64,000 nt of DNA from an uncultured delta proteobacterium (GTDB lineage Bacteria > Desulfobacterota > Syntrophia > Syntrophales > Fen-1087): the NCBI GenBank assembly GCA_963743175.1, contig CAVUOQ010000015.1, positions 8,220-72,219 on the forward strand. Reading direction: 5' to 3'. A program made the translations under genes and the position numbers. Shown here in pieces: positions 10,679 through 41,076 of the stretch; position 1 is the stretch's first letter; each line of letters begins with the position of its first letter. Below the pieces are notes generated by a model, which worked only from the letters and a program-made list of their open reading frames with translations, did not search any database and was not told the DNA's origin.

Positions 10679-12577
10679 CTACTGCCAGCGATCCCGCTTT
10701 TCCTTACTTCCATAATTTTCATATTCTTCCCGGAGGGCGATCTGGGTCGCTTCCGCAATATCCTCGACGCGTTTCACCCAGTCCTCAAACTTGATGTCCA
10801 CGCCGAAAATGCCCACCATCTCATCCTTGTCATCCATGATGGGGGCCGAGACGGTGATACACAGGGCGCCTGTCATTTTGGAAATATAGAAATTGGTGAC
10901 ATGGATCTTGCCGGTCTGCAGGGGTTTGATAAACCACTCGCGATCCGACTGATCGGTGCCGATGCCGTAATTTTCATACTTCACCCGGTCGGCGATATTG
11001 GTGATGTTCCTCGTTGTTTTTTTTCCATTCATATCAACAACATAGGAAAACTGGATCGAGGGATTTTCCTCGATGCACTGCAGCATGATGGGTTCCTGGA
11101 GATCGGGCTGCATGCTGCGCATGACGGGGTGCTCGATAACCTGTTTCACCACGGCCATGGCGGCCTGTGCGGCCATGTGCTTGATCTTTTCCAGATTGGA
11201 CATGAACAGTTCCGGTAGATATTTCCGGACGCGCTTTTCCATTTCTTCATTGGAGATACTCGTCACCCGGCCGGCATCATATTCTTCGGTAATCCATTTG
11301 TGGATCCTTGAGATGCCGGGATGCCGCTTGTCGACCGTATTATCGCCCGCAAGACCCAGGTGGCCGTTGATCCAGTAGGCAATTCCCGATTTTCCGGATT
11401 TGTCCGTGACCATCGGTACAATGGGTCTTTTCAGGATCTTGGTGGTGTCGAATATATTGTAGATCTCTTCACATTTGATCAGGCCGTCGGCATGGATGCC
11501 TGCACGCGTCACATTGAAATCCGCACCCACAAAAGGATAGTTTGCGGGAATCTTGTAACCGATCTCTTTTTCAAAATACCGGGCGATATCCGTGATGATG
11601 GTCGTATCCACGCCGTTCGTTGAACCCCTGAGTCCGATGTAATCTATGATGAGGGCTTCCACCGCCGGATTTCCGGTCCGTTCCCCGAGACCGAGCAGGG
11701 TGCCGTTGGCGGCGCTGCATCCGTAAAGCCAGGCGCTGGTGGCGTTGATCAGGGCCTTGTGAAAGTCGTTGTGACCATGCCATTCCAGCAGATCACCCGG
11801 GACGCCCGCCTCCTCAATGAACGCCCGGATCATTTTATCGACGCTGCGCGGCAGGGACGCCCCCGGGTAGGTCACGCCATATCCCATCGTATCGCAGAGC
11901 CTGATCTTGATATTGATGCCGCTTTGAGCACGCAGCTTCATGAGTTCAATGGCGAAGGGAATGCAGAAACCGTAAATATCGGCCCTGGTGATGTCTTCAA
12001 AATGACAGCGGGGAATGATCCCGGCGTCAAGGATGGACCGGACCGTGTCGAGATAGTCTTCCATGACTTGGCGTCTGGTTTGATTGAGCTTCAGGAAGAT
12101 GTGATAATCCGATACGGAAGTCAGAATGCCCGTTTCCTTCAGGCCGGCCTCCTTCACGAGTTTTACATCCTCCCCGTGAGCCCGGATCCAGCCGGTCACT
12201 TCCGGATACCTCAAGCCCAGGCTCAGACATTTGGCGACGGCCTCCTTGTCCTTCTGGCTGTAGAGAAAGAATTCCGTCTGGCGGATCACGCCGTTTTCGC
12301 CGCCTAACCGGCTCATGAACGTGTACAGATCAACGATCTGTTTCACCGTATACGGGGGCCGCGCCTGCTGACCATCTCGGAAGGTGGTATCCGTGATGAA
12401 GATGTCGTCGGGCGGATTGATGGGAATGAGTTTATGATCAAAGTCGATCCGGCTGACCTCATCAAAGGGGAAAACATCCTTCTGGAGATTCGGCTGATCG
12501 ATATCTTTCAGGTCATAGCGCCAGAAGCGGGAATGCTCATGATCCAGTACTTTTTTGTCCTTGTTCCACTTGGCCAT
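10679..12577 (-). CDS. HMGL-like acyl-CoA:2-oxoacid condensing enzyme (homocitrate / isopropylmalate / Re-citrate synthase family) fused to a C-terminal Cache/PAS-like sensor domain
   Basis: DTTFRDGQQ, LCDTMGYG and WHGHNDF motifs over aa 60-330. The C-terminal 150 aa carry the Cache-like pattern DQSDREWF ... FYISKMTGALCITVSAPI ... GIFGVDI. Confidence 0.7.
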   Translation of the reverse strand: MAKWNKDKKVLDHEHSRFWRYDLKDIDQPNLQKDVFPFDEVSRIDFDHKLIPINPPDDIFITDTTFRDGQQARPPYTVKQIVDLYTFMSRLGGENGVIRQTEFFLYSQKDKEAVAKCLSLGLRYPEVTGWIRAHGEDVKLVKEAGLKETGILTSVSDYHIFLKLNQTRRQVMEDYLDTVRSILDAGIIPRCHFEDITRADIYGFCIPFAIELMKLRAQSGINIKIRLCDTMGYGVTYPGASLPRSVDKMIRAFIEEAGVPGDLLEWHGHNDFHKALINATSAWLYGCSAANGTLLGLGERTGNPAVEALIIDYIGLRGSTNGVDTTIITDIARYFEKEIGYKIPANYPFVGADFNVTRAGIHADGLIKCEEIYNIFDTTKILKRPIVPMVTDKSGKSGIAYWINGHLGLAGDNTVDKRHPGISRIHKWITEEYDAGRVTSISNEEMEKRVRKYLPELFMSNLEKIKHMAAQAAMAVVKQVIEHPVMRSMQPDLQEPIMLQCIEENPSIQFSYVVDMNGKKTTRNITNIADRVKYENYGIGTDQSDREWFIKPLQTGKIHVTNFYISKMTGALCITVSAPIMDDKDEMVGIFGVDIKFEDWVKRVEDIAEATQIALREEYENYGSKEKRDRWQ

Positions 12578-19024: not shown

Positions 19025-19116
19025 CGTTGAAATCGTCTTAATTGATGAAATGTTTTTGCAAAGTATTATCAAAGTATTATATAGCACAGCGCAGGCGAAG
19101 ATGCCTGACAAAAAAT

Positions 19117-20793
19117 ATGATCTCGGGATTCCAGATGGTCCAGGCTGAAAATATAGATAGCCGGGTTCGCTATTTGATGCTGGCCAGAGTGGCGGTCATC
19201 ACCATTCTGCTGGGCATCGCCACGTTTGTGGAACTCAAGGGCGAAGAGTTTTTGCCGGAGATATCGCTCTATTCATTTTACGTCATCGTCATTGCCGCTT
19301 ACATTCTTTCAGCCTTTTATTACATCATTTTGCATCTCACGTTAAACCTGAAAATCAATCTCTATTTTCAGGCGCTCTGCGACGTGCTCATGATAACGGG
19401 ACTCGTATATGCCACGGGGGGAATCCAGAGCATTTACGCTGTGTTCTATACCATTGTCATCATCTACTCGGTTATATTCCTGGGCAGACGGGGGGGATTG
19501 ATCATCGCCTCGGCGTGCGGCATCTTTTACGGGGGGCTGCTTGACCTGGAGTATTATAAAATCCTGATTCCCTCTTATGCGCTGATAAAAGACATCTCTT
19601 TCAGCGCGGGCTATGTCTTTTCGAGAATCATTATCTACATCTTTTCATTCTACCTGGTGGCGATTCTTGCGAGTTTCGTCGTGGAAAAGGAAAGAAAAAC
19701 GAGAACCCTGCTGGAAGAAAAGGTCACCGCTTTCGACCAGCTCGATCTGCTGCATCGCAGTATTATTGAATCCATCGACACGGGAATTGTAACCGTCGAT
19801 CTCCTGGGCCGCATCAAATCGTTCAACCGTGCGGCCGAAGAAATCACGGGCTATGCGTCACCAGATATTGAAAATCTTAATATTATTGATGTTATTCCTG
19901 AATATGGAGAACTGCGTGAAAAATTGAACCGGGGCGCCGAATCGGACTCCCGGAAAAACCGGGTCGAGATAATGCTCCAAAGGAAATCCGGGGCGTCTCT
20001 TGTGCTGGGTTGTTCCATCTCCTTCCTGAAAGACAGCCAGGGAGCAAGGATTGGCGATATTCTGGTTTTTCAGGATTTGACCGAGATCAAAGAAATGGAA
20101 CGCCATCTCGAAACGAGCAGGCGACTTGCCTTCGTCGGCGAAATGGCCGCCGGCCTTGCCCATGAAATGAGAAATCCGCTGGCATCGATCGGCGGTTCCA
20201 TTCAGATGCTGCACAAGGGCCTTGATCTGAGTTTGTCGGATGAGCGCCTGATGCAGATCATTCTGAGAGGAAAGGATCAGCTGGAAAGCTTCATGAAGGA
20301 TTTCTTGCTCCTGTCCAGGCCGACACCCGGGATTCATGAAGCATTTAAAATTGATGAGATCATCGATGACGTTCTCGATACCATTAAGTATGTGCCGGAC
20401 TGGCGGGACCAGATCGAAATCATGAGATCCTCGACGAATCAGCTTGAAATCTTCGCCAGTAAAACTGAGATCAGGCAGCTGATCTGGAACCTGGTGATGA
20501 ATGCGGTCCAGGCTATGCCCGATGGCGGCAGGCTCAGTATCAACACGCGTGATGCGATGCTGACAGGATCCATCCCGGCCCTGGAATTTGAAATCATTGA
20601 CGACGGACTTGGGATTAATGAAAGCAATCTCGGTAAAATATTTGAACCATTTTTTACGACCAAGGAAAAGGGAACGGGGCTTGGTCTGGCGATTGTCAAC
20701 CGGATTGTCGATGGTTATCTCGGGACAATCATGGTCGACAGCGTACCGGGACGCGGCACCAAATTCTCTATCAGGCTGCCCCGCAACACTTAA
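19117..20793 (+). CDS. sensor histidine kinase (PilS/NtrB-like: polytopic N-terminus, PAS, HisKA, HATPase)
   Basis: Six predicted TM helices, a PAS region (IDTGIVTVDLLGRI), the H-box GLAHEMRNPL, N-box NLVMNAVQA, and G-boxes DDGLGI and GTGLGL. Confidence 0.88.
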   Translation: MISGFQMVQAENIDSRVRYLMLARVAVITILLGIATFVELKGEEFLPEISLYSFYVIVIAAYILSAFYYIILHLTLNLKINLYFQALCDVLMITGLVYATGGIQSIYAVFYTIVIIYSVIFLGRRGGLIIASACGIFYGGLLDLEYYKILIPSYALIKDISFSAGYVFSRIIIYIFSFYLVAILASFVVEKERKTRTLLEEKVTAFDQLDLLHRSIIESIDTGIVTVDLLGRIKSFNRAAEEITGYASPDIENLNIIDVIPEYGELREKLNRGAESDSRKNRVEIMLQRKSGASLVLGCSISFLKDSQGARIGDILVFQDLTEIKEMERHLETSRRLAFVGEMAAGLAHEMRNPLASIGGSIQMLHKGLDLSLSDERLMQIILRGKDQLESFMKDFLLLSRPTPGIHEAFKIDEIIDDVLDTIKYVPDWRDQIEIMRSSTNQLEIFASKTEIRQLIWNLVMNAVQAMPDGGRLSINTRDAMLTGSIPALEFEIIDDGLGINESNLGKIFEPFFTTKEKGTGLGLAIVNRIVDGYLGTIMVDSVPGRGTKFSIRLPRNT

Positions 20794-20805
20794 GGAGATG
20801 TGAAA

Positions 20806-22185
20806 ATGGCAAACATTCTTGTCCTCGACGACGACAAGGGAATGAGGGAGTTTCTTGAGATCATGCTCAATCGCGAGGGCTACAAGGTAAGCTGCGCGGC
20901 GGATGCGGAAAAGGCTCTGATCCTCTGTAAAAAACAGAAATTCGATTTGATTCTTACGGATCTGAAAATGCCCAAAATCGACGGCATCGAGTTTCTGAAA
21001 CGCAGTCGCGATATCTGTCCGGAATCACTGGTGATCCTTATGACCGCCTACGCATCCGGGGAAACCGCCGTGTCCGCCATGAAAGAGGGCGCCTATGATT
21101 ATATTGAAAAGGATTTTGATATCGACGATCTGAAGGTCCTGATTCAGCAGGCATTAACCAAAAAGGGCGTCATGAAGGAAGGCGCCCAGTTCATCAGGGA
21201 AGTCGAAGGCGCCGTTAGTTTTGGCCGCATGATCGGCAGCAGCAAGGAAATACTGAAGGTCTATGCGCTGATCAACAAGGTGGCCGCAACATCCACCAAC
21301 ATATTGATCCTGGGAGAAAGCGGCACAGGCAAGGAATTGGCGGCCAGGGCCATCCACGAAAACAGTCCCGGAGCAGATTCCCCATTCATTACGATCAACT
21401 GCGGCGGCATCCCGGAAACCCTGCTTGAGTCTGAATTATTCGGTTATATGAGAGGCTCTTTCACGGGCGCCCATGCGGATAAGCCGGGCCTCTTCGAAAT
21501 GGCCAGTGGCGGAACAATATTTCTTGATGAAATCGGTGAGTTACCGCCTGTTCTTCAAGTTAAACTTTTAAGAGTCGTTCAGGAAAAGTCATTCCGGCGG
21601 ATCGGGGGTTCGGAGGATATCAAGGTCGATGTCCGGATTATTTCAGCCACCAACCAGAACCTGGATGAAAAAGTCAAGGACGGGTCATTCCGTGAAGATC
21701 TTTACTATCGCCTGAATGTCATTCCGATCCATCTTCCGCCGCTGCGGGAACGGAAGGACGACATTCCCGTTCTGACCAAGCATTTCATCGAAAAATATTC
21801 CAGAGCATTCAATAAGGAAATTAGAACGATTTCCCTGTATGCACTGGAGCTGCTGATGGGGTATCAGTTTCCGGGCAATATCCGGGAGCTGGAAAACATC
21901 ATTGAACGCAGCGTTGCGCTGGAATCCTCCAACATCATTCTGCCCGAAAATCTCATCCTTTCAAAAGACTCCAAAGAACAGAAAACTTTTCAGGATTTTG
22001 ACATCCCCGAGCAGGGCGTTCACCTCAATGCTGTTTTGGCAAACTATGAAAGACAATGGATTGCAAAGGCTCTGGACAAATCCATGGGCTCAAAGACAAA
22101 AGCGGCAGAGCTCCTTCATGTTACAGCGGATTCGTTGCGTTACCGGATTGAAAAACTTGGGTTGGAAGACAAACCGGAAAAATAA
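20806..22185 (+). CDS. sigma-54-dependent response regulator (NtrC/PilR family)
   Basis: Receiver domain (ILVLDDD ... DLILTDLKMP), AAA+ sigma-54 activation domain (GESGTGKE, GAFTGA-like GSFTGA, ESELFGY) and a C-terminal Fis-type HTH. Confidence 0.92.
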   Translation: MANILVLDDDKGMREFLEIMLNREGYKVSCAADAEKALILCKKQKFDLILTDLKMPKIDGIEFLKRSRDICPESLVILMTAYASGETAVSAMKEGAYDYIEKDFDIDDLKVLIQQALTKKGVMKEGAQFIREVEGAVSFGRMIGSSKEILKVYALINKVAATSTNILILGESGTGKELAARAIHENSPGADSPFITINCGGIPETLLESELFGYMRGSFTGAHADKPGLFEMASGGTIFLDEIGELPPVLQVKLLRVVQEKSFRRIGGSEDIKVDVRIISATNQNLDEKVKDGSFREDLYYRLNVIPIHLPPLRERKDDIPVLTKHFIEKYSRAFNKEIRTISLYALELLMGYQFPGNIRELENIIERSVALESSNIILPENLILSKDSKEQKTFQDFDIPEQGVHLNAVLANYERQWIAKALDKSMGSKTKAAELLHVTADSLRYRIEKLGLEDKPEK

Positions 22186-22189
22186 TTTC

Positions 22190-22218
22190 TTGACATTATT
22201 GCTTTCCGCCTCTATAAG
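22190..22218 (+). promoter_or_regulatory. sigma-70-type promoter of the leader/ABC operon
   Basis: TTGACA (22190-22195), 17-bp spacer, TATAAG (22213-22218). Confidence 0.6.
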
Positions 22219-22244
22219 TGCCTCACAAAGGGCAGGTGCAACGT

Positions 22245-22334
22245 ATGGACAATTCAAGCAACATGGGTCGCAAGGCAGTTCAGTTTTTTGCTTTCTTTAG
22301 CTTTTTTAGCGGGGTCTGCCTGCCACGCTCATGA
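22245..22334 (+). CDS. Phe-rich leader peptide (29 codons) MDNSSNMGRKAVQFFAFFSFFSGVCLPRS
   Basis: Six Phe codons occur within 9 consecutive codons (22284-22307). The ORF ends inside the antiterminator arm, immediately upstream of a canonical terminator. Confidence 0.6.
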   Translation: MDNSSNMGRKAVQFFAFFSFFSGVCLPRS

Positions 22335-22389
22335 TTGTGCATGAGACATTGGCCGTGGGCAGACCTCTTTACTGCCCACGGTTTTTTTT
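22311..22389 (+). promoter_or_regulatory. transcription attenuator (antiterminator arm 22311-22327; terminator 22353-22389)
   Basis: 22311-22327 pairs with 22354-22367 (10 bp including one G-U, a bulge, then 4 bp). That pairing competes with the perfect 10-bp terminator stem 22353-22362/22372-22381, which is followed by T8. Confidence 0.6.
22353..22389 (+). terminator. intrinsic terminator of the leader transcript
   Basis: CCGTGGGCAG-acctcttta-CTGCCCACGG followed by TTTTTTTT. Confidence 0.8.
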
Positions 22390-22395
22390 ATCTTG

Positions 22396-22426
22396 AGGCC
22401 GTGGAAAAAATTCCATGGCCTTTTTT
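22396..22426 (+). terminator. second hairpin + T-tract in the leader
   Basis: AGGCCGTGG-aaaaaatt-CCATGGCCT (one G-U pair) followed by TTTTTT, 22 nt upstream of the binding-protein start. Confidence 0.5.
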
Positions 22427-22447
22427 ATTGATCAGGAGGAAGGGAAA

Positions 22448-23656
22448 ATGAAACGAATGCTCAAATGGCTGGTTATTATGGCGGTGGTCGCGGGTTTAGC
22501 CCTGCCGGGGCAGGCAACACGCGCGGATGCCGCAACGATCAAAGTCGGGGCGGCGATCAATCTGACCGGTCCGGCATCCACCTGGGGACAGTATCACGCC
22601 AAAGGACAGCAGGATTATTTCCGCTATGTCAATGACGTCAAGGGGGGTGTCGCCGGCCGGCGGATCGAGATGATCCTCGTGGACACGGGCTACAAGGTTA
22701 CCGATGCGGTTGCCGCAGTGCGGAAATTCGCCGTTTCCGACAATGTGGATATGATCGCCACCTGGAGCGCCGGAGAGGGCCTTGCGGCGAAGCCCATCAT
22801 CCAGGAGTACAAGATTCCGACCATCAATTATTCGACGAGTTGGGAAATCCTTGAGGCGCCCATTGGCTACATGTACCTGCCGTTCGGCAGCTACCGCATG
22901 GACTGCTATGCGGTTATTGACTATATCCTCACCATTCACAGGGGAAAAGAGCGGCCGAAAATCGGTCTTCTGACCTACAACAACGCCTATGGGCGCTCCA
23001 TCCATCAGCCGACGCGGGAGTACGCCGCCGGCAAGCAGGTGGATATCGTCGCCATCGAAGAATTTCCGCCCAAAACGGTGGACCTGTCGACGGAACTCCT
23101 GCGCCTCAAACAGAAGGGGGCCGAGTACATCTTCATGCAGATGCTGCCGTCAGCCATCATCACGGCTTTCAAGAGCGCCGACCGGATCAGCTACAATCCC
23201 CAGTTTCTCGGAACCTGGACCTCCACGGATCCGGACTTTTTCAAAATGGGAAAGGGGCTCATCCGCGACCGCCTGAAAATGCAGTTTCCCGGCGGGCTGC
23301 CCTCCGACAGGACAGCCGGCATGAAACTCATGGATGAACTCACCAGGCGCTACAGGAGTGTTGACCGGTTTGACGCGGCCTACTGGGAGGGCGTCGTGGT
23401 CGGCGTCATCATGGAACGGGCGTTCATCCGGGCCAATGAAGCCTCAAAGCAGATCAACCGGGACACCATTAACAAGGCGATGGAATCATTCCGCAACGAA
23501 AAGTTCGATGGTCTTGTTCCGGATATCACTTACACGAAAACAGATCATGGCGCCTCGTTCAAGGCCAGGATGGTGCGGGTCCGGGAGGACGGGACGTATG
23601 TTCCCCTGACGAACTTCTATACGCCCGGCAAGGAAAAAATCAAGCTCATCAAGTAA
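22448..23656 (+). CDS. ABC transporter periplasmic substrate-binding protein (LivJ/K-type, PBP1 fold)
   Basis: Signal peptide MKRMLKWLVIMAVVAGLALPGQATRADA, then IKVGAAINLTGPAS, typical of Leu/Ile/Val-binding-protein-family receptors. AGGAGGAAGG lies upstream of ATG 22448. Confidence 0.85.
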   Translation: MKRMLKWLVIMAVVAGLALPGQATRADAATIKVGAAINLTGPASTWGQYHAKGQQDYFRYVNDVKGGVAGRRIEMILVDTGYKVTDAVAAVRKFAVSDNVDMIATWSAGEGLAAKPIIQEYKIPTINYSTSWEILEAPIGYMYLPFGSYRMDCYAVIDYILTIHRGKERPKIGLLTYNNAYGRSIHQPTREYAAGKQVDIVAIEEFPPKTVDLSTELLRLKQKGAEYIFMQMLPSAIITAFKSADRISYNPQFLGTWTSTDPDFFKMGKGLIRDRLKMQFPGGLPSDRTAGMKLMDELTRRYRSVDRFDAAYWEGVVVGVIMERAFIRANEASKQINRDTINKAMESFRNEKFDGLVPDITYTKTDHGASFKARMVRVREDGTYVPLTNFYTPGKEKIKLIK

Positions 23657-23667
23657 CCTTAAAGTTA

Positions 23668-23717
23668 CCCCCACCCCTCCCTTCCCCTCGACGGGGGAGG
23701 GATACAGGGAGGGGGCA
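23668..23717. repeat. GC-rich hairpin (REP-like) repeat
   Basis: CCCTTCCCC-tcgac-GGGGGAGGG (23679-23701) has the same tcgac loop as 1484-1506. Confidence 0.7.
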
Positions 23718-23737
23718 TTTTCATAGAAAATAGGAAG

Positions 23738-24565
23738 ATGAAATCATTACGAGGCCAGCCAGGGATTTTTCATAACCGCAGTCGGGAGGATAGCGTCGCC
23801 GATCTGGAGGTGATGAATTTATCTTTGCATTTCGGCGGCGTCAAGGCCCTCAATCAGGTCGATCTGACGGTCAATACCGGCGAACTGGTGGCGGTCATCG
23901 GACCGAACGGTGCCGGCAAGACCAGCCTGCTGAACTGCCTGACCGGGTTTTACCGGCCGCAGACGGGCCATATCCGCTTTAACGGCAGGGATATCACCCA
24001 TCTGCCCCCGCATGCGCTGGTCGGGCTTGGCATCGGACGGACCTTTCAGAATATTGAGCTGTTCCCCGGCATGACCGTTTTGTCCAACATGCTGCTGGCG
24101 CGCCATATCCATTGCCGTTATGATCTGGGACCGGCGGCGCTCTTCTCGTCTTCGGTTCGCAAAGAGGAAATCCGCCATCGCGAGATTCTCGAGGAGGTGA
24201 TTGATTTTCTGGAAATGCAGGCCATCCGGAAAAAGAATGTGGGATCTCTTCCCTATGGTCTCATGAAGCGCGTGGAACTCGGCCGCGCCCTGGCGCTGGA
24301 ACCGAAACTGCTGGTGCTGGACGAGCCTTTTGCCGGGATGAACCTTGAAGAGAAGGAAGACATGGTTCGTTTCCTTGTCGAATTGAACGAATCCTGGGGG
24401 CAGACCATGATCCTCGTGGAACACGACATGTCCATTGTCATGAGCATTTCAAAGCGCATCATGGTCCTGAATTTCGGTGAAAAACTCGCAGAGGGTTTAC
24501 CGGAATATGTCAGTAACCACCCGGAGGTCATCAAGGCCTATCTGGGCGATCCAGGAAACCTTTAG
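23738..24565 (+). CDS. ABC transporter ATP-binding protein (LivG-like)
   Basis: GPNGAGKTS Walker A, LPYGLMKRVELGRAL signature region and LLVLDEPFAGM Walker B. The exact start is uncertain. Confidence 0.88.
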   Translation: MKSLRGQPGIFHNRSREDSVADLEVMNLSLHFGGVKALNQVDLTVNTGELVAVIGPNGAGKTSLLNCLTGFYRPQTGHIRFNGRDITHLPPHALVGLGIGRTFQNIELFPGMTVLSNMLLARHIHCRYDLGPAALFSSSVRKEEIRHREILEEVIDFLEMQAIRKKNVGSLPYGLMKRVELGRALALEPKLLVLDEPFAGMNLEEKEDMVRFLVELNESWGQTMILVEHDMSIVMSISKRIMVLNFGEKLAEGLPEYVSNHPEVIKAYLGDPGNL

Positions 24566-26484
24566 TGAAAACGGATATGACAGCATCTGTAACCGAAAAA
24601 ACACTGCCCCAGGTCCTGGCCCTTCAGGCCGAGCGTCTCGGTTCCGGCACGATCGCCGTCCGCGAAAAGGCCCTGGGCATCTGGCAAACCTACTCTTGGA
24701 CGGACTATTTTCGATACGTGAGGCATGTCGGCGCCGGATTGCTTGCGCTGGGTCTCAAGCGCGGTGAATGTGTCGGAATCATTGCCAACAATCACCCCGA
24801 ATGGCTGTTTGGCGAACTCGGTGTCCAGTCAGTGGGTGGAGTGAGCCTGAATCTGTTTACCTCTTCGGTCAGTGAAGAGCTCTGCCTGGCCCTGAACCGC
24901 GTTCAGGCCGCCTGCGTGGTGGTGCAGGATCAGGAGCAGGTCGATAAATTGCTGGAGTCCAGGCATAAACTGCCCCATGTCCGCCGCGTCGTTTATATCG
25001 ACCCCACCTGCATGAGAACCTATGCAAACGATCCCTGGCTCCTGAGTTTCCAGGACCTGATCCGCATGGGAGAAGCCTTTGACCGGGAATATCCGGATCG
25101 CTTTGCCGCCGAATTGCACCGGGGCGGCCGGGATGACTGCGCGCTCATGATCCTGACCTCCGGGACGACCGGCATGCCGAAACTCGCCATGCTCTCTCAC
25201 CGCAACCTGACGGCCATAGCAGCCAGCTGGGTCGAGGCCATGAAGATCATGCCGGGTGAAAACTGGATTTCCATGTCCCCGCCGGCCTGGATTGTCGACC
25301 AGATGTGGGGTGTGGGCGTCGCACTCGTCGGGGGGATGACCATGAATTTTCCGGAAACCCAGGAAACCGTCCTGGAGGATTTCCGCGAAATCGGCCCGTC
25401 GCTTTTGATCAGCGCCTCGCGGTTCTGGGAAGACCTGGCTTCCAGGATTTTGGTAAAAATGTCCGATGCCGGCCTGCTCAAGCGAATATGCTTTGAATGG
25501 GCGAAAAAGATCGGGAAAATGGTTACTGGGCACGCATCCCGAAACAACGGGATTCCGTGGTTTCTGAACATCCTGCACCGTCTCGCCGCCTGGACGGTTT
25601 ATCGCCCCCTCCTGGATCGTACCGGCTGTGCAAACCTGCGCAGCGCCTTTACGGGCGGGCATCCCATCAGTCCGGATGTCATCGGCTTCTTTCGCACGAT
25701 CGGCCTGAACCTCAAGCAATGCTACGGCCTGACGGAGGCGGGCGGTATTTTTCAGATCCAGCCGGATGATCAGGTCAAGCTGGAGACGGTCGGAAAACCC
25801 GTTCCGGGCGTTCAGGTTCGTATTTCTGAAGATCAGGAGGTCCTTGTTCGCAGCGGCTCGGTGTTCAGCGGTTATTATCAGGACTTCCAGGCAACGGAAG
25901 CCGCCTTTCAGGAGGGATGGCTGAGAACCGGCGACGCCGGCTACATCGACAAGGACGGCCACCTGCTCATCATCGGCCGCAAAGAGGAGATCATCCGCAA
26001 CAAGGGCGGGGACGCCTTTTCACCGGATTTTATTGAAACCCGTTTGAAATTCAGTCCGTATATCAAGGAGGCCGTTGTCTTCGGGGAAGGGCGGCCCTAT
26101 ATCACGCTCATGGTGAACATTGATTTCGGCAACGTGGGGGTCTGGGCGGAGGAGCGCATGATTCCCTATACGACCTACATGGATCTTTCCCAGCAGCAGG
26201 CCGTGGCGGAGCTGATTACAGGTGAAATCAGAAAGGTCAACGAGCAGTTGCCGGAGGTCATGAAGGTCAGGAAATTCTTCCTGCTCTACAAGCTCCTGGA
26301 CGCCGACGATGAGGAACTGACCCGGACCGGCAAGGTGCGCCGGCGTTTTGTCTATGGACTTTATCTCAAGCTGATTGAGTCCATGTACCGGGATCAGCCG
26401 GAAGTGGATGTGAAAGCAAAGGTTCAGTACCGGGACGGTCAGATCGGCAAGGTGGAAACCCGGGTAAAAATCATATCGCTGTAA
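24565..26484 (+). CDS. AMP-forming acyl-CoA ligase (long-chain-fatty-acid/aryl-acid CoA ligase family) embedded in the ABC operon
   Basis: AMP-binding motifs ILTSGTTGMPK, GYGLTE-like CYGLTEAG, TGDAGYIDKDGHL and GRKEEIIRNKGGD. GTG 24565 overlaps the previous stop. Confidence 0.88.
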   Translation: MKTDMTASVTEKTLPQVLALQAERLGSGTIAVREKALGIWQTYSWTDYFRYVRHVGAGLLALGLKRGECVGIIANNHPEWLFGELGVQSVGGVSLNLFTSSVSEELCLALNRVQAACVVVQDQEQVDKLLESRHKLPHVRRVVYIDPTCMRTYANDPWLLSFQDLIRMGEAFDREYPDRFAAELHRGGRDDCALMILTSGTTGMPKLAMLSHRNLTAIAASWVEAMKIMPGENWISMSPPAWIVDQMWGVGVALVGGMTMNFPETQETVLEDFREIGPSLLISASRFWEDLASRILVKMSDAGLLKRICFEWAKKIGKMVTGHASRNNGIPWFLNILHRLAAWTVYRPLLDRTGCANLRSAFTGGHPISPDVIGFFRTIGLNLKQCYGLTEAGGIFQIQPDDQVKLETVGKPVPGVQVRISEDQEVLVRSGSVFSGYYQDFQATEAAFQEGWLRTGDAGYIDKDGHLLIIGRKEEIIRNKGGDAFSPDFIETRLKFSPYIKEAVVFGEGRPYITLMVNIDFGNVGVWAEERMIPYTTYMDLSQQQAVAELITGEIRKVNEQLPEVMKVRKFFLLYKLLDADDEELTRTGKVRRRFVYGLYLKLIESMYRDQPEVDVKAKVQYRDGQIGKVETRVKIISL

Positions 26485-26497
26485 GGAGAAAACGGTC

Positions 26498-27376
26498 ATG
26501 GATTTTTTTGTTCAGCTGCTCGTCAACGGGATCAGTATCGGCTTATTGTACGGACTCTCGGCGATGGGTTTTGTCATGATTTTCAAATCCTCCAGCGTCC
26601 TGAATTTTGCTCACGGGGAACTGCTGGCCTTTGGGGCGTTTCTCTTCCTGGCGCTCATCACGTGGGCACAACTGCCGCTGCCGGTAGCTTTCCTGGCGAC
26701 TCTGGCCGGCTGTTTCGCCCTGGGGTTCCTTATCGAGCGCGTTTTCCTGCGACCCCTGATCGGGGAACCGCTGATCTTCGTGATCATGCTCACCGTGGGG
26801 CTGGCGGCCATGTTCAAAGGTCTGCTGCTTTTTGTGTGGGGGGGGAATCTCCATACCTTTCCCGAGTTTCTGCCGGAAGCGATGGGCATCGACTGGGGAA
26901 TCGTCCATGTTGCACCCGTTTATGTGGCCACCCTGTTGATCGGTATGATATTTCTGTTGCTCTTTGGTCTGTTTTTCAAATATTCCTCGCAGGGGATCTA
27001 TATGCGGTCCGTGGCCGACAACCAGCGGGCGGCCCTGTCCCTCGGGGTGCATGTGAAACGCGTTTTTGCACTGTCCTGGGCGATTGCCGCTCTGGTCGCC
27101 GGCATGAGCGGCATCGTGCTGGGCATTATCAACGGGATCAATGTCCATGACCTGAGCGCAATCGGCCTGAAGGTTTTTCCCGTGATCATCCTGGGCGGCC
27201 TGGACAGCATTGGCGGCGCCATCATCGGCGGTCTGATTATCGGCCTGCTCGAAACCTTCACGGGGGGCTATCTGTCGCCCGGGCTGCGCGATGTGGTGCC
27301 TTATATCGTACTGGTCGTGATCCTGCTGGTCAAGCCTTATGGTCTCTTCGGCCTGAAGGAAATTGAACGGGTCTGA
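26498..27376 (+). CDS. branched-chain-type ABC transporter permease (LivH-like)
   Basis: Polytopic 292-aa protein with the LivH-family N-terminus (QLLVNGISIGLLYGLSAMGFVMIF ... NFAHGE). Confidence 0.88.
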   Translation: MDFFVQLLVNGISIGLLYGLSAMGFVMIFKSSSVLNFAHGELLAFGAFLFLALITWAQLPLPVAFLATLAGCFALGFLIERVFLRPLIGEPLIFVIMLTVGLAAMFKGLLLFVWGGNLHTFPEFLPEAMGIDWGIVHVAPVYVATLLIGMIFLLLFGLFFKYSSQGIYMRSVADNQRAALSLGVHVKRVFALSWAIAALVAGMSGIVLGIINGINVHDLSAIGLKVFPVIILGGLDSIGGAIIGGLIIGLLETFTGGYLSPGLRDVVPYIVLVVILLVKPYGLFGLKEIERV

Positions 27377-27387
27377 TCAACAAACTG

Positions 27388-27482
27388 ACGGAATTCGACG
27401 GCTTCGTTAAAAGTCCTTTTTCCCCTCTCCTGGCGGGAGGGGACGAAGGGGAGGGGGAGGGAATTCTTGACTTTTTACAGGG
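27388..27482. repeat. GC-rich hairpin (REP-like) repeat with both terminal modules
   Basis: GACGGCTTCGTTAAAAGTCC ... TCCCCTCTCC-tggc-GGGAGGGGA ... GGAATTCTTGACTTTTTACAGG, located in the livH-livM spacer. Confidence 0.7.
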
Positions 27483-27500
27483 GCGACAAAGGGTGAATAA

Positions 27501-28577
27501 ATGAAGATCAAAAAGTGGCAATTCCACCCGTGCGGCAATTACCGCGAACACTACGCACAGGAATTGAGTATCTTTGAGACGGATTTTGGCCGGCTCTGGC
27601 TGGGTATCGGGATTATGGCGCTCTTTGGGATCGTTCCCTGGGTCTTCAGCCCCTACATGATCTATGTGTTCAATACGATCGGGATTGCTGCGATTGCCGT
27701 GATCGGGCTGAACATCCTGATCGGCTTTACCGGGCAGATTTCCCTCGGGCACGGCGCCTTTTTCGGTGTGGGCGCCTACGCAGCGGCTATTCTCGCAACA
27801 ACCCTGGATTTCCCGTTTTATCTATCCATTCCGGCCGCCGCCGTCATCACGGCCATGGTCGGCATGGTTTTCGGCACGCCCTCGGTGCGGCTCAAGGGAC
27901 TCTATCTGACCATTGCCACACTGGCGGGTCAGTTCATCATTGAATACATCCTGCTGCGTTGGGAAAGTCTGACCAAGGGGACCATGGGAATGATCCTGCC
28001 GAAGCCCTCTATTTTAGGGTGGGAATTGAGCGGCGACCGGGTTTTCTTTTTTATGATCTTTGCCTGCCTTATCCTGATGGCCTGGATCGCGGTGAACCTG
28101 ATCCGTACGAAATACGGCAGGGCCTTCATCGCCATCCGTGACAATGACCGGGCGGCCGAAGGCATGGGCATTCCGATCTTTCGATACAAGCTTCTGGCCT
28201 TTGGCATCAGTTCATTCTATGCCGGCTTTGCAGGCGCCCTCTATGCCTATTACAGCGTCAGCATCACCACGGAACCCTTCACCCTGAGCCTTTCCGTGGA
28301 GTATATCGCCATGGTGATCATCGGCGGCATGGGCAACATCACCGGATCTATCTTCGGCGCCATTTTCATCACCGGACTCAATGAGATACTGCGCTGGCTC
28401 ACGGAACTGCTCATGAACATGGGGGTCGTCAGCGGTTCCGGCCTGAATATGGCGCCACTGCGCGAATTTACTTTCGGCCTGGCGATTGTGCTGTTCATTA
28501 TTTTCGAACCAAGGGGTTTGGCGGAGGTCTGGCGGATTGTGCGTTCGAGTTTCCGGCTATGGCCGTTTTCATATTGA
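27501..28577 (+). CDS. branched-chain-type ABC transporter permease (LivM-like)
   Basis: Polytopic 358-aa protein with the LivM-family core (GQISLGHGAFFGVGAY). Confidence 0.88.
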   Translation: MKIKKWQFHPCGNYREHYAQELSIFETDFGRLWLGIGIMALFGIVPWVFSPYMIYVFNTIGIAAIAVIGLNILIGFTGQISLGHGAFFGVGAYAAAILATTLDFPFYLSIPAAAVITAMVGMVFGTPSVRLKGLYLTIATLAGQFIIEYILLRWESLTKGTMGMILPKPSILGWELSGDRVFFFMIFACLILMAWIAVNLIRTKYGRAFIAIRDNDRAAEGMGIPIFRYKLLAFGISSFYAGFAGALYAYYSVSITTEPFTLSLSVEYIAMVIIGGMGNITGSIFGAIFITGLNEILRWLTELLMNMGVVSGSGLNMAPLREFTFGLAIVLFIIFEPRGLAEVWRIVRSSFRLWPFSY

Positions 28578-28744
28578 GAGACTTTTGAAAAATGGTTCGC
28601 AAGCGGCGAATCAAATGTTTTCCGCCTTTCCAGTAATGACGTTAACGGTTTGTAATATATCATGATAACGCCTGGTTATCTTCTTAGCGGAAAAGATTTT
28701 TGAGCCGCGGCGAAGCCATTTTTCAGAGGTTATGCAAAGCTCTC
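28578..28744. mobile_element. MITE-like element, full copy with its core inverted relative to its outer termini
   Basis: 167 bp flanked by the direct repeat ATTGA (28573-28577 and 28745-28749). The first repeat contains the livM-like stop codon. The outer ends are in reverse orientation and the core is in forward orientation compared with the other copies. Confidence 0.8.
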
Positions 28745-28761
28745 ATTGAAGGTAAGCGTCC

Positions 28762-29562
28762 ATGAATGAAACAATGATTAAAATCAATAATATATCCGTT
28801 GTTTACTCCGACGTGATTCAGGTGCTCAAAGGCGTGTCGCTGCACGTGGAAAAAGGGCATATCGTGTCCCTGTTAGGCAGTAACGGCGCCGGCAAAACAA
28901 CAACCCTGAAGGCCATCTCCGGCCTCCTGAAGCCGGAGAACGGAAAGGTCACCGACGGCACGATCCTGTTTAATGACCAGCCCATTCACAATCACTCGCC
29001 CGAAACCATCACGCGCATGGGCATCATCCAGGTTCTGGAAGGCCGCCAGCCCTTCAAATACCTGACCATCGAGGAAAATCTGAGGGTCGGAACGGCAACC
29101 CGCTGGGGGAAGCCCTACCGGCAGGACATGGAGCTGGTTTATCACTACTTCCCGGCTCTTCTGGCGCGCCGGAAAGCTCTGGCGGGGTATTGCAGCGGCG
29201 GGGAACTGCAGATGCTCGTTATGGGAAGGGCGCTCATGGCGCATCCGCAGCTTCTCCTGCTGGATGAACCGTCGTTGGGCCTTGCACCCCTGGTGGTCCG
29301 TGAAATCTTTCAGATCATCAAAAAAATCAATGAAGAGCAGGCGACCACCATCATTTTAGTCGAGCAGAACGCACGGATGGCCCTGCAGATCGCCCATTAC
29401 GCCTATGTCATGGAAAACGGCAAGATCGTCATGGAAGGAAGAGCTGAAGAGCTGGTCGAGAACCCCGACGTCAAGGAATTTTATTTAGGGATGGCGGCCA
29501 CAGGCATCGCCAAATCTTACCGGGATGTTAAATCCTACCGTCGGCGGAAACGATGGCTGTAG
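28762..29562 (+). CDS. ABC transporter ATP-binding protein (LivF-like)
   Basis: GSNGAGKTT Walker A, CSGGELQML signature and LLLLDEPSLGL Walker B. Confidence 0.9.
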   Translation: MNETMIKINNISVVYSDVIQVLKGVSLHVEKGHIVSLLGSNGAGKTTTLKAISGLLKPENGKVTDGTILFNDQPIHNHSPETITRMGIIQVLEGRQPFKYLTIEENLRVGTATRWGKPYRQDMELVYHYFPALLARRKALAGYCSGGELQMLVMGRALMAHPQLLLLDEPSLGLAPLVVREIFQIIKKINEEQATTIILVEQNARMALQIAHYAYVMENGKIVMEGRAEELVENPDVKEFYLGMAATGIAKSYRDVKSYRRRKRWL

Positions 29563-35290: not shown

Positions 35291-37760
35291 TTGGACCGTT
35301 TAATCGACATCCTGACGAAAATTGAACAGCCGCTGCTTTTCTCCTCCCGCGAGGACTATAAACACCTGCCCCTCGTCAAAGATCTGGAGATAACCATCTC
35401 GAATCTTCTGACGAAGCTGCTTCAGGCTCTCCCGTCAGCCGCAATCGATGCGCAAACGGGTATGGATGTCGGGCGACTCGCGCAGAAATTCCAGGAGCTC
35501 TTCAGGGGATATGATGCGCTGCCCCTTGAAGAAAAAAAAGAGATTCTTCAAAAATCGCGGCTGCTGGGCGCTGAACTCCGGCAATGGCTTGCCGCCGCCA
35601 TTCGCTCTCCGGACAGCCATGAACAGGCCGTGGCGGATCGCATGCAGGACCTCAGACAGGCCATCGTCAAACTGTCCGGGGAGGTGCAGTTCATCAAGGG
35701 CGTGGGACCCAGGATTGCACAATTGCTTGCCAGAAAAGGCGTCAAGACCATCGAGGATATCTTTTATTTTCTCCCGCGACGCTATGAAGACCGGCGGATC
35801 GTGCAGAAAATTGCCCAGGCGCGAGTCGGGGTCAAGGAAACTGTGGTCGGCACGGTCGTTCAGGCCCAGGTCCGGCCCTATCAGAGGCGCAGGGCCTTTG
35901 AGGTCGCCATCGATGACGGCAGCGGGTCCCTCACGGCCAAATGGTTCATGGGGAACCTGACCTACTTGAAAAACACCTTCCAGCCGGGACTGCGGGTGAT
36001 CCTGACGGGTGAGATCCGCCTCTTCAAGGCCGGCAAGGATATGATCCATCCGGACTATGAAATCCTCGATGAAGACGATACGGATCTGCTCCATTTCAAG
36101 CGCATCGTCCCCATTTATTCGGAAACGGAAGGCCTGCATCAGAAAACGCTGCGGCGAATTGCGATGCGGGTGCTCAACGATTACACGCGCTATGTCACGA
36201 GTCCCATTCCCGAGGCATTTTGCGAAAAACGCCGCCTGATCCACATCCACGACGCCCTGCGCAACGTCCATTTTCCCGAGGCAGACGCCGACGTGGCCCT
36301 TTACAATGACCTCCGCTCAACGGCCCATCGCCGGCTCATCTATGATGAATTTTTCTTCTTCCAGTTGGGCCTCGCGCTGAAGCGCAAAGGCCATCTGCTG
36401 GATCAGGGGATTCCTTTCAAAACGGGCGGCCCGCTTCTGAAAGAGTTCTATGCAGCGCTTCCGTTTTCACTGACCGGCGCCCAGTCCCGTGTGATCGATG
36501 AAATTGAAGGCGGATATGGCAAAGCAGACCGTCATGCATCGCCTGCTGCAGGGCGACGTGGGCTCCGGAAAGACCGTCGTGGCGATGGCCGCGATGGTAA
36601 CGGCCTGTGAAAACGGCTATCAGGCTGCGCTGATGGCCCCCACGGAACTGCTGGCCCAGCAGCACTACGCCACCATCACGGGCTGGGCGGAACGTCTGAA
36701 CCTCAAGGCCATCCTGCTGACAGGAAGCAGCAAAACGGTTGAACGCAACGAGATTCGCGAGGACATGGCCAGCGGCCGCGCGGACATCATCATCGGGACG
36801 CACGCGCTGATCCAGGATCGCGTCAGCTACGGAAATCTCGGCCTGGTGGTCATCGACGAACAGCACCGTTTCGGCGTTCTGCAGCGCGCAACCCTGCGGA
36901 CAAAAGGAGTTATGCCGGATGTCCTGGTCATGACGGCCACCCCGATTCCGAGGACGCTGGCCATGACGGTTTACGGGGATCTCGACGTTTCCGTCATCGA
37001 CGAACTTCCGCCGCAGAAAAAACCCATCAAGACGAAGGTCTTCTATGAATCCCAGCGCACGCAGGTCTATGAGGCCATCCGCAGGGAACTGGCCAAGAAA
37101 CACCAGATATTCATCGTCTATCCGCTCGTGACCGAATCGGAAGCCCTCGATCTCAAGGACGCCACGCGCATGGCGCAGCACCTGCAGCAGGACATCTTTC
37201 CGGACTACCGGGTCGGCCTTATTCACGGCCGTTTAAAGGCTCAGGAAAAGGATGAGATCATGGCCGCATTCCTCGACAAACAGACGGATATTCTCGTATC
37301 GACCACCGTCATCGAGGTGGGCATCGACATTCCGCAGGCCTCCGTCATGGTCATCGAACATGCCGAACGCTTCGGCCTTTCGCAGTTGCACCAGCTCCGG
37401 GGGCGCGTCGGCCGGGGCGACATTCCGGCCTATTGCATCCTTCTGGCCCAGCACAAGGGATCTCAGGAGGCCAGAAGACGGCTGCGCATCATGGAGGAAA
37501 CCAACGACGGCTTCCGGATTGCCGAAGAAGACCTTGCGATCCGGGGGCCGGGCGAGTTCATGGGGGTCCGACAATCAGGCCTGCCCGATTTCCGCGTCGC
37601 CAACATCGCCCGGGACGGCCAGATCCTCAACGAGGCCAAAACAGACGCCTTCGCCCTGATCGAACAGGACCCGTTTCTCAACAAACCCGATCACACCCTG
37701 CTCCGGGAAGTCCTGCTGCACCGCTGGCAGGAACGCCTGAACCTGGCCAAGACGGGATAG
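35291..37760 (+). pseudogene. recG: ATP-dependent DNA helicase RecG, reading frame broken once near 36505-36515 (true frameshift or sequencing indel)
   Basis: ORF 35291-36610 carries the wedge domain and ...LPFSLTGAQSRVIDEIE. ORF 36498-37760, in another frame, continues ...DMAKQTVMHRLLQGDVGSGKT, DEQHRFG and the C-terminal helicase motifs. Removing one G in GAAGGCGG restores ...IDEIEADMAKQ... Confidence 0.85.
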
Positions 37761-37796
37761 GTCGATAGAGAAGCGGGAAGGGAGCGGGCGGATGAG

Positions 37797-38018
37797 GTGG
37801 CACATCTCATCTCAGCTTTGCCGGTCCGGTTGTTTGATATTGACCTCGATCTGATCAGGCAGGCAGCGGTTTACAATGCGACAAGAAAAATGTCCTGCGC
37901 CGACTGTATCGCAGCCGTCTTTGCCAGGCTCCGTAAAGCCGAACTGGTGACAGGGGATGATGATTTCAAGCAACTGAAGGGCGAGATAAATATTCTGTCG
38001 GATTTCATATCTCGTTGA
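37797..38018 (+). pseudogene. C-terminal fragment of a PIN-domain (VapC-like) toxin
   Basis: ...MSCADCIAAVFARLRKAELVTGDDDFKQL is the C-terminal acidic-residue block of PIN toxins. The N-terminal half is absent and no antitoxin gene is present. Confidence 0.6.
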
Positions 38019-38261
38019 GTTTTGGTCATAATCCGATTCTCCCGATTATAGAATATTTAGCAGGAATATTGATGTGATACTTGCTGTTTGGTCAGGATTG
38101 ATGTAATAAACGCCATCGATCCCTAAAGGACGCCTATATTGCTGCAATCCGATGTTGTCGCGATATATGGTATATTTTCAGGAGAACAAACACAAAAAAG
38201 CAAATGACCATCGACACATAAGCCCAAATTCAAAGCTGTTGTATCGGAAGGAAAGGTTAGC

Positions 38262-38626
38262 ATGGATAATCGATTCTTTGAGAGACCTGTCATCAATGAA
38301 CTCCGCCGTCATGTAGATCAGTGGCGAAGCCTACCGAACCCGAAGGACTGGCAGGTGACGCCCGAAACCGCTCGACTGCTCCAGCACTGGCGGCATCACC
38401 GGTTCAACTGCATCTGATCGTCGAAATCAAGGGCTACCGACGCGAAGACGCCAAGGAGAAGAAATCAACAATGGAGACCTACTGGGTGCCCGGCGTCAAC
38501 AACCACGGGAAGTATGGCCGCTGGGCCTTCGCCGAGTTCACCGATATTTACCGGATCGAATCCGACTTCGAGGCAAAAGTCGAAGCCGAGTTCAACAAGA
38601 TGGTTGAAAGAATCGTGAATGATTAA
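38262..38626 (+). pseudogene. internally deleted type III restriction Res subunit remnant (N-terminal 50 aa joined out of frame to C-terminal 80 aa)
   Basis: MDNRFFERPVINELRRHVDQWRSLPNPKDWQVTPETARLLQHWRHH stops at 38414. The +2 frame continues LHLIVEIKGYRREDAKEKKSTMETYWVPGVNNHGKYGRWAFAEF, the typical Res C-terminus. The helicase core is missing. Confidence 0.65.
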
Positions 38627-38692
38627 GAGAAACAAAAAATAACCTTTACATATGGTAACTTTTATGTTACTTGTTGTCTGTAAGCAGGGCGT

Positions 38693-39016: not shown

Positions 39017-39031
39017 AGGGGGACCGGATAA

Positions 39032-39346: not shown

Positions 39347-39413
39347 TCCATCTTTCGTAAAAGATCAAGGCCCGCTTTCCCGAACCATACCTTGAATGAA
39401 TAAAGGATGAAGC

Positions 39414-39686: not shown

Positions 39687-39764
39687 GATAGTCAAAGTCT
39701 ACTTTACACCTAATCTAATTCTTTTCAATGGTTCCAAGGCTGTTTCCCCTGTGGAGGTAATAAA

Positions 39765-40697: not shown

Positions 40698-40710
40698 GCA
40701 AGGAAATACC

Positions 40711-41058: not shown

Positions 41059-41076
41059 GAAGATCCTCTGTGCTAA

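Follow-up and report, generated by a model that had tools for sequence, protein, structure and literature searches.

In the enterobacterial leaders pheL and pheM, a short open reading frame (ORF) carries a run of phenylalanine (Phe) codons interrupted by single other residues, and is followed by a terminator and an overlapping antiterminator whose 5′ arm is covered by the terminating ribosome, with derepression expected when Phe-tRNA is scarce (general knowledge and PMC3082878). We describe an element with the same features at positions 22190-22447 of a 64,000-nucleotide stretch of DNA (the window) from an uncultured member of the Syntrophales (contig CAVUOQ010000015.1, positions 8,220 to 72,219). 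It lies directly before an operon for an ATP-binding cassette (ABC) importer and an acyl-coenzyme A (CoA) synthetase. We give a probability of about 0.88 to the reading that this element is a ribosome-mediated transcription attenuator that senses phenylalanyl-tRNA and controls the operon. Our analysis consists of sequence computation throughout, and follows up a preliminary description of the same DNA that had proposed attenuation of the pheL/pheM type here. That proposal is supported by the ORF, its conserved Phe codons, a stop codon fixed within the antiterminator arm, and covarying terminator and antiterminator helices.

The element departs from pheL and pheM in several respects. At 21-39 codons the leader exceeds theirs in length; its N-terminus is free, and its stop codon falls inside the antiterminator arm (segment 2). 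It has two serial terminators, it belongs to the Syntrophales, and its target is an ABC importer and an acyl-CoA synthetase rather than a biosynthetic enzyme or a tRNA synthetase. The enterobacterial pheA leader is represented in Rfam by Phe_leader, which we take to be accession RF01859. No Rfam family matched the whole window at gathering thresholds, a permissive scan of 21900-22700 returned only noise (at most 18 bits, E at least 0.26), and scans of 12 other loci bearing the same scaffold gave no family match. Because no Rfam model matches, we regard the element as analogous, not homologous, to enterobacterial pheL. No description of this leader was found in the full-text literature open to reading.

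Two other classical systems offer parallels in architecture. In the his attenuator of Salmonella and Escherichia coli, six segments (A-F) form a chain in which the pairings B:C and D:E exclude A:B, C:D and E:F. The Syntrophales leader likewise has a six-segment chain that would propagate a single ribosome position along the transcript. Unlike his, where only the last helix is a terminator, both the 3:4 and the 5:6 pairings here are hairpins followed by U-tracts, and the relay would switch off two terminators. To our knowledge, one ribosome decision governing two serial terminators has not been described for leader-peptide attenuators. The four-segment logic of trpL is also recognisable, and one scaffold member with a WWW leader precedes trpE. 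However, unlike trpL, this trpE variant is found by the same covariance model as the Phe, tyrosine (Tyr) and mixed versions that precede unrelated genes, whereas in enterobacteria the leaders of different operons do not resemble one another in sequence.

Two serial terminators in one leader also occur with the tandem THI elements of Desulfovibrio, which are tandem cis-regulators each followed by a terminator (PMC545781). Those are two complete and independent sensors, whereas the present leader has one leader-ORF sensor, with its second terminator apparently slaved through the 4:5 pairing. Among related anaerobes, the Geobacteraceae have a conserved 5′ element before aroG-2 (Gmet_R0069 = GSUR082), and Geobacter has another before iorAB-paaK, listed under tryptophan supply; these were read as 'possible promoters and riboswitches', with no mechanism given (Aklujkar et al. 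2009, PMC2700814). Compared by description only, they resemble the present family as conserved leaders before an aromatic-pathway gene for DAHP (3-deoxy-7-phosphoheptulonate) synthase and an operon for an indolepyruvate oxidoreductase and an aryl-acetate CoA ligase. What is new here is the lineage, the uptake and CoA-ligase targets, the second terminator with its proposed coupling by a relay, and the apparent re-coding of one scaffold across a putative aromatic regulon.

Anatomy of the leader

The spacer between the pilR-like gene and the binding-protein gene is 262 nucleotides (nt) long (22186-22447). It holds, in order, a sigma-70-type promoter, a 29-codon ORF, an antiterminator, a terminator (T1) and a second terminator (T2; Table 1). 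The promoter starts 4 nt past the stop codon of the pilR-like gene, and the leader ATG lies ~27 nt downstream of the -10 box. Promoter, leader ORF, the perfect T1 stem with its T8 and the second hairpin with its T6 are all present as the preliminary description had claimed. Two of its details needed adjustment. The six Phe codons stand where it had placed them, in a run of eight codons rather than nine. The arm within the ORF does pair with the 5′ side of T1, although its partner is 22350-22367, through 11 base pairs (bp), a 3-nt bulge and 4 bp, rather than 22354-22367.

The binding-protein gene most likely starts at ATG 22448, which has AGGAGG upstream; the other in-frame ATG, at 22415, falls within T2. 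Only 21 nt separate the T2 U-tract from this start codon, and a promoter scan found no site between T2 and the gene. A separate operon promoter 3′ of T2 was rejected on these two grounds, and the 21 nt imply that the operon is transcribed through both terminators.

Stretches of eight codons with at least six Phe codons are unique to the leader on both strands of the window, and such a stretch arose in 2 of 200 first-order Markov simulations. The features of the leader exceed chance, and the comparative evidence is their decisive support.

Table 1. Coordinates of the leader, the operon that follows it, and neighbouring genes in the window
Feature	Position	Strand	Details
Sigma-70-type promoter	22190-22218	+	-35 TTGACA 22190-22195; spacer 17 nt; -10 TATAAG 22213-22218
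Shine-Dalgarno-like AGGTG	22234-22238	+	6 nt 5′ of leader ATG
Leader ORF	22245-22334	+	MDNSSNMGRKAVQFFAFFSFFSGVCLPRS; ATG 22245; 29 codons; TGA 22332-22334
Candidate segment 1, GGCAG	22274-22278	+	Possible partner of CUGCC in segment 2 if the leader is untranslated
Regulatory Phe codon block	22284-22307	+	TTT TTT GCT TTC TTT AGC TTT TTT; 6 Phe in 8 codons
Segment 2, antiterminator 5′ arm	22311-22325	+	Core GGTCTGCC 22313-22320; within leader ORF
Leader stop TGA	22332-22334	+	19 nt past first base of segment 2 core
Segment 3	22350-22367	+	Core GCCGTGGGCAGACC 22352-22365; common to antiterminator (with segment 2) and T1 (with segment 4)
T1 stem	22353-22362 / 22372-22381	+	Perfect 10-bp stem, then T8 22382-22389
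Segment 4 and U8	22372-22389	+	CTGCCCACGG 22372-22381; U8 22382-22389; T1 3′ arm and U-tract; alternative partner segment 5
Terminator T2	22395-22426	+	Segment 5 core GGCCGTGG 22397-22404 : segment 6 core CCATGGCC 22413-22420; hairpin proper 22395-22422; U6 22421-22426
Ribosome-binding site and binding-protein start	22434-22450	+	AGGAGG 22434-22439; ATG 22448
Downstream operon, six genes	22448-29562	+	Pfam and NCBIfam
Peripla_BP_6 periplasmic binding protein	22448-23656	+	Pfam/NCBIfam
LivG-like ATPase	23738-24565	+	Pfam/NCBIfam
AMP-forming acyl-CoA synthetase	24565-26484	+	639 amino acids; Pfam/NCBIfam
LivH-like permease	26498-27376	+	Pfam/NCBIfam
LivM-like permease	27501-28577	+	Pfam/NCBIfam
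LivF-like ATPase	28762-29562	+	Pfam/NCBIfam
PilS-like histidine kinase	19042-20793	+	Upstream neighbour
PilR-like sigma-54 response regulator	20800-22185	+	Upstream neighbour
iorA, indolepyruvate:ferredoxin oxidoreductase	46008-47813	+	601 amino acids; TIGR03336 689 bits, cutoff 651
iorB	within 47695-48384	+	NF005322 250 bits, cutoff 237

Conservation, covariation and folding

A protein-anchored scan returned 68 loci whose binding proteins are 65-97% identical to that of the window. Close relatives of this binding protein come from Syntrophales and Smithella metagenome-assembled genomes. Upstream DNA is included for 65 loci, and the leader counts below are over 64. A covariance model placed one copy of the element directly 5′ of the binding-protein gene in all 65 loci with upstream DNA; it found no further scaffold copies in the window, nor any within ~4 kb around the orthologous operons. 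From the binding protein to livH, the genes come in the same order in every locus that reaches that far. Homologues of pilS/pilR lie upstream in only ~37 of the 68 loci. The proposal that the element serves the uptake and activation genes, and not the sigma-54 regulator, is therefore supported. Control of the operon by the upstream sigma-54 regulator was rejected, since pilS/pilR are missing from nearly half of the loci while the leader is always there. No -24/-12 promoter was seen by eye.

The promoter is conserved along with the element. TTGACA or TTGACT, a 17-18 nt spacer and a TATAAG- or TATATG-like box form the top-scoring pair in 55 of 64 loci, and the -10 box ends 82-103 nt upstream of segment 2 in most loci. 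Homologous leader ORFs have an in-frame ATG in ~60 of 64 loci, with a Shine-Dalgarno-like motif before it in most. Most are 21-39 codons long, and the N-terminus is free in both length and sequence. The alignment of orthologues, suggested as a check in the preliminary description, shows the Phe run to be conserved as an FFxFFxFF block. Counted from the GTC codon of segment 2, codons -10, -9, -7, -6, -4 and -3 are predominantly Phe, in 42-61 of 64 loci, and those in between may encode Ser, Ala, Gly, Val or Thr. At the third base, the TTN codons have T in 287 cases, C in 57, G in 6 and A in 5. In 59 of 64 loci the leader stop lies exactly 19 nt past the first base of GGTCTGCC; all three stop codons are in use (TGA 46, TAA 13, TAG 5). 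In 48 of 64, a gap of 5 nt separates the end of the last Phe codon from segment 2.

A second short F-rich ORF, MIIYFFLDFFRIFALYAPYK (MIIYFFLDFF...), is conserved at about -265 to -185 from the binding-protein gene in some loci, Smithellaceae-labelled ones included (L016, L040, L041, L046, L064). It overlaps the T-rich promoter region, and as a gene it is probably spurious.

Compensatory changes occur in all four helices: 2:3, T1, 4:5 and T2. In the first alignment, which was protein-anchored and not selected on RNA, 94% of T1 cells are paired, with UA to CG changes in 12 sequences and AU to GC changes in 5, and T2 shows both-sided changes in 11 of its 12 pairs. Each pair of the 9-bp antiterminator core is ~83-100% paired in this alignment, with two compensatory cases (L061 and L012). 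A second alignment of 79 members from different gene contexts was fitted to T1 and T2 only. There, pairing reaches 97.9% in the 2:3 helix and 97.4% in the 4:5 helix, with 11 and 8 compensatory cells, respectively, and neither result was matched in any of 500 shuffles. Slide controls reached 29-48% for 2:3 and 20-53% for 4:5. The metagenome set was chosen on exact segment 2 and 3 cores, and the covariation within these cores comes from the protein-anchored set and model-detected variants only. The compensatory changes in terminator and antiterminator helices accompany the conserved Phe run, both of which the preliminary description had suggested looking for in orthologues. The ORF, its codon conservation, the stop position, the four covarying helices, the promoter and the exclusive association with the operon are all read directly from the sequence and its comparison.

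Segments 3 and 5 are near-repeats of each other, as are segments 4 and 6. The 5′ arm of T2, GCCGTGG, is far more conserved than its 3′ arm and repeats the 5′ arm sequence of T1; consequently, the 3′ arm of T1, CCACGGC, can pair with the 5′ arm of T2. In loci L085, L096 and L078, T1 and T2 alike now have stems of the CCCCGGG type, a joint change, and in L140 and L178, segments 4, 5 and 6 have changed together to CCATGG and segment 3 has kept its G. At the level of predicted pairing, these scaffold variants show the coupling of T1 and T2 directly.

Folding of 22225-22430, another check that had been suggested, gives the antiterminated form as the minimum-energy structure (z = -4.9), with 22311-22325 paired to 22350-22367. 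In the window, helix energies are -33.6 kcal/mol for 2:3, -21.9 for T1, -14.2 for 4:5 and -19.6 for T2, and the medians across orthologous loci are -27.8, -23.0, -14.6 and -15.8 kcal/mol, respectively. A window transcript ending just past segment 5 folds as 2:3 plus 4:5, and for 51 of 64 loci this combination is also the structure of lowest energy over segments 2 to 5. T2 itself is present in 52 of 64.

From these features we infer ribosome stalling, a kinetic folding order and the physiological signal. The conserved promoter would drive transcription, and the leader ORF would be translated at once. With plentiful Phe-tRNA, the ribosome would reach the stop codon 19 nt into segment 2 and, going by ribosome footprint sizes taken from general knowledge, would cover that segment. 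Segments 3 and 4 would then pair as T1, and polymerase would halt at the U8 tract; any polymerase that escaped T1 would meet T2, formed by segments 5 and 6, with its U6 tract. When Phe-tRNA is scarce, the ribosome would stall at the first four Phe codons and leave segment 2 free to pair with segment 3. Segment 4, now unpaired, would capture segment 5 as it emerged, leaving segment 6 without a partner, and polymerase would pass both U-tracts into the binding-protein gene. The 4:5 pairing thus probably couples T2 to the same ribosome decision as T1.

Several observations weigh against this reading. GGCAG, the candidate segment 1, lies 5′ of the Phe block in 33 of 64 loci, or only about half, mostly at -39 to -35 from segment 2, and the 1:2 fold in the window is weak (-16.9 kcal/mol, z = -1.7). 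T2 in the window is slightly more stable than the 4:5 pairing, so that the relay hinges on folding kinetics. About 12 loci, Smithella- and Smithellaceae-labelled ones included, lack T2, and their antiterminator is weaker than T1. If a ribosome stalled at the last two Phe codons, part of segment 2 would lie beneath it, and only the first four Phe codons fit the stalling model cleanly. The correlated changes in T1 and T2 could also have arisen through T1 being duplicated repeatedly, and not through a 4:5 helix with a function. Finally, the link of the regulated transporter to Phe is putative only.

Leader ORFs can also act through Rho, as tnaC does, and T2 lies near the ribosome-binding site of the binding-protein gene. 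Both facts would suit a leader ORF working at another level: it might act by Rho-dependent termination or on the stability of the mRNA, or, at the start of the binding-protein gene, by translational coupling or reinitiation. We hold this to be extremely unlikely. Both hairpins are GC-rich with U6-U8 tracts directly after them, the terminator stems covary, and the antiterminator overlaps the 5′ arm of T1 exactly. Further, over 110 nt lie between the leader stop and the start codon that follows, which is too far for coupling.

One scaffold across aromatic amino acid genes

A metagenome scan with a pattern made of the segment 2 and 3 cores only (GGTCTGCC, 25-50 nt, CCGTGGGCAGACC) returned at least 120 loci. 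The scaffold is recognisable as the segment series GGUCUGCC / GCCGUGGGCAGACC / CCCACGGC-U run / GGCCGUGG / CCACGGCC-U run, and an aromatic-rich leader ORF ends in or just past its segment 2. Orthologues of the operon described here account for at least 62 loci, with Phe-rich leaders (F4-9, Y0-2, W0). Phe leaders also precede a monocistronic gene for a 514-amino-acid acyl-CoA ligase (at least 4 loci, again with 1-2 Tyr at most and Trp absent) and, with some Tyr, the chorismate mutase/prephenate dehydratase gene pheA (at least 5 loci). Tyr leaders precede a paralogous importer, encoded as binding protein-livH-livM-livG-livF with no synthetase and a binding protein 25-29% identical (at least 8 loci), and a type I-alpha DAHP synthase (at least 3 loci). 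Mixed Phe/Tyr/tryptophan (Trp) leaders precede 2-amino-3,7-dideoxy-D-threo-hept-6-ulosonate (ADH) synthase (at least 13 loci), Phe/Trp/Tyr leaders a type I-beta DAHP synthase (at least 3 loci), and a Trp leader a LivH-like permease (at least 1 locus).

At least 3 further loci with Phe/Tyr leaders (L148, L150 and L140) have no confirmed adjacent target, and in L148 an AroFGH-type DAHP synthase starts ~650 nt downstream of the leader. In at least 12 more, further Phe-type leaders included, the contig ends before a gene or the target is unassigned. About 6 among the matches listed are chance matches inside long ORFs. A reading of the metagenome leaders as Ile/Leu/Val-rich was rejected, since the correct frames are Tyr-rich or aromatic-rich.

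A covariance model (R1) built from 52 Syntrophales leaders of this operon only scores the window, which is in the seed alignment, at 106.5 bits, and scores copies in other gene contexts at 28-104 bits. The six chance matches, which share the 21-nt pattern of the search, serve as an internal negative control: each falls short of 10 bits or receives no score. R1 also found further copies on the same contigs as known ones, in L085, L120 and L140.

Some of these contigs hold compound arrangements. Two divergent, back-to-back attenuators occur in L085 (7557-8165), L096 (303-764) and L078 (1-460). In one arm, a Tyr-rich leader precedes a type I-alpha DAHP synthase; in the other, a Phe-rich leader (...GRFFFSFRSVHP..., on a variant scaffold) precedes a type I-beta DAHP synthase and pheA, and this Phe-rich leader carries two Tyr codons. 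Two tandem scaffold copies precede a single ADH synthase gene in L120 (4202-4506, minus strand), perhaps as a pair of sensors acting one after the other. The same contig has a third copy (4869-4999, plus strand; R1 32.5 bits), the one with the WWW leader before trpE. L140 has two copies. In L140 (1227-1343 and downstream) and L178, an F/Y-rich leader precedes a 555-amino-acid protein without an NCBIfam match, and T1 has no U-tract, which is found on T2 only.

The pheA-linked copies, with a pheA leader at L189 2200-2375, were placed in Desulfosarcina by protein search. Indeed, cultured Desulfosarcina ovata (AP021876.1) has the element before pheA-aroE-aroA-aroC, with the leader MFHFFTGSYFCFYYFSKGLPGAR. 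As judged from these sequences, the scaffold very probably represents a single, uncatalogued family of six-segment leader-peptide attenuators that is present in Syntrophales, Desulfosarcina and metagenome contigs. On the predicted gene functions, leader composition tracks the pathway of the downstream gene. This match between leader codons and downstream pathway is our strongest argument that sensing occurs by codon translation.

The scaffold is read by leader ORFs in any of three frames, giving peptide tails of the types ...GLP..., ...VCL... or ...RSA.... It follows that the tail is conserved as RNA and not as peptide. This bears on the idea that the ORF stands alone as a gene whose product is a small hydrophobic peptide, with T1 and T2 as ordinary terminators for it and for pilS/pilR, and with the operon expressed by leak-through or from an unrecognised promoter. 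The peptide is indeed hydrophobic, and the ORF with its promoter and terminators makes up a complete small transcription unit. Moreover, the stop codon of the PilR-like gene lies so close to the -35 box of the leader that the pilSR transcript has no terminator of its own before T1/T2, which would end it as well. We nevertheless find this account very unlikely indeed. The peptide is conserved only at the Phe block and where it overlaps RNA helices, its N-terminus is free, and its tail is read in all three frames. Its composition follows the downstream pathway, the element accompanies the operon with or without pilS/pilR upstream, and T2 is separated from the start codon of the operon by only 21 nt.

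A switch set by a trans-acting RNA-binding protein or by a small-molecule ligand, as in a riboswitch, would treat the Phe-rich ORF as incidental U-rich sequence. The scaffold is unusually conserved across operons and at least two named lineages (Syntrophales and Desulfosarcina), which a shared binding partner could explain, and GCCGUGG is present twice. Against this, no Rfam family matches any scaffold member scanned, and the conserved part consists of mutually exclusive helices only, with no aptamer-like multi-helix junction. The U-rich block is strictly triplet-periodic, with T or C at third positions, and the ORF retains both its in-frame start and the fixed distance of its stop. Further, the Tyr- and Trp-rich versions at the same position are not U-rich. 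We consider a protein- or ligand-set switch very unlikely, and prefer attenuation by translation of the leader codons.

The operon after the leader and the biology of the family

The operon that follows the leader has the composition of HAAT-family (LivJ/LivK-type) importers, to which an acyl-CoA synthetase is added. Its binding protein belongs to Peripla_BP_6 and its two permeases to BPD_transp_2, and its ATPases are of the LivG/LivF type. Database matches to its products are generic. A PDB sequence search with the binding protein gave 3lkb as best match (E = 3.6e-28) among generic relatives only, and NCBIfam names for the CoA ligases are of the 'fatty-acid CoA ligase' type only. Stand-alone genes for the 514-amino-acid ligase, each with a Phe-coded leader, were observed in L072, L076, L095 and L186. 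The PDB relatives of this ligase belong to the ANL family, and include FadD5, feruloyl-CoA synthetase, oxalate-CoA ligase, malonyl-CoA synthetase and 4-coumarate-CoA ligase. The PDB and NCBIfam searches did not separate uptake of Phe from salvage of aryl acids.

As substrate of the operon, Phe and a precursor of the aryl-acid kind are about equally likely. Uptake of the amino acid is favoured by the paralogues with Tyr and Trp leaders, since these are HAAT-type importers and nothing more. Phe-coded leaders also precede two different acyl-CoA ligases, one within this operon and one stand-alone. The window also encodes indolepyruvate:ferredoxin oxidoreductase (iorAB) ~16 kb downstream of the operon, after ybgC-like and ybgF-like genes and without a leader of its own, and Geobacter has its conserved element before iorAB-paaK. 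Taken together, these make import of an aryl acid, its activation with CoA and its reductive carboxylation to phenylpyruvate a live alternative. Reductive carboxylation of aryl acids to phenylpyruvate is known in rumen bacteria and methanogens. In such a route, an aryl acid such as phenylacetate would be imported and converted to its CoA ester; indolepyruvate:ferredoxin oxidoreductase would then carboxylate the ester reductively, giving phenylpyruvate, from which Phe would be formed. That the scaffold family is an aromatic amino-acid regulon (Phe, Tyr, Trp or mixed, in any frame) and, jointly, that it includes starvation-induced salvage of aryl acids to Phe is a combination we offer tentatively, and regard as rather unlikely.

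The surroundings of the operon include recJ downstream, on the opposite strand. Upstream, no pilin gene follows the PilS/PilR-like pair (19042-22185). Elsewhere in the window, recG is present as two overlapping ORFs in different frames on the plus strand, with the wedge domain in 35291-36610 and the helicase domains in 36498-37760, which suggests a frameshift or a sequencing error near 36500-36610. Long ORFs are few in the adjoining region, 37760-42274, which includes one gene for an HNH endonuclease (39765-40697) and may be a mobile or foreign insert. A 632-amino-acid ORF on the minus strand (10679-12577) has an HMGL-like domain at residues 60-333 and, towards the C-terminus, a sensor domain of the Cache/PDC type at residues 501-599, an unusual pairing.

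The Phe-coded leader and its relatives would extend classical attenuation to the strict anaerobes of the Syntrophales and Desulfosarcina, which have been little studied experimentally in gene regulation, and to genes for uptake and CoA activation. The reuse of one scaffold, with only the leader codons changed and in any frame, appears to be a natural form of modular, reprogrammable amino-acid sensing. In uncultured syntrophs, leader composition points to a likely Phe, Tyr or Trp role for transporters named as 'branched-chain' ABC transporters and for ligases named as 'fatty-acid' CoA ligases, and flags a possible salvage route from aryl acids to Phe. A family member stands before pheA in Desulfosarcina ovata, which is cultured and fully sequenced, and this makes the model directly testable.

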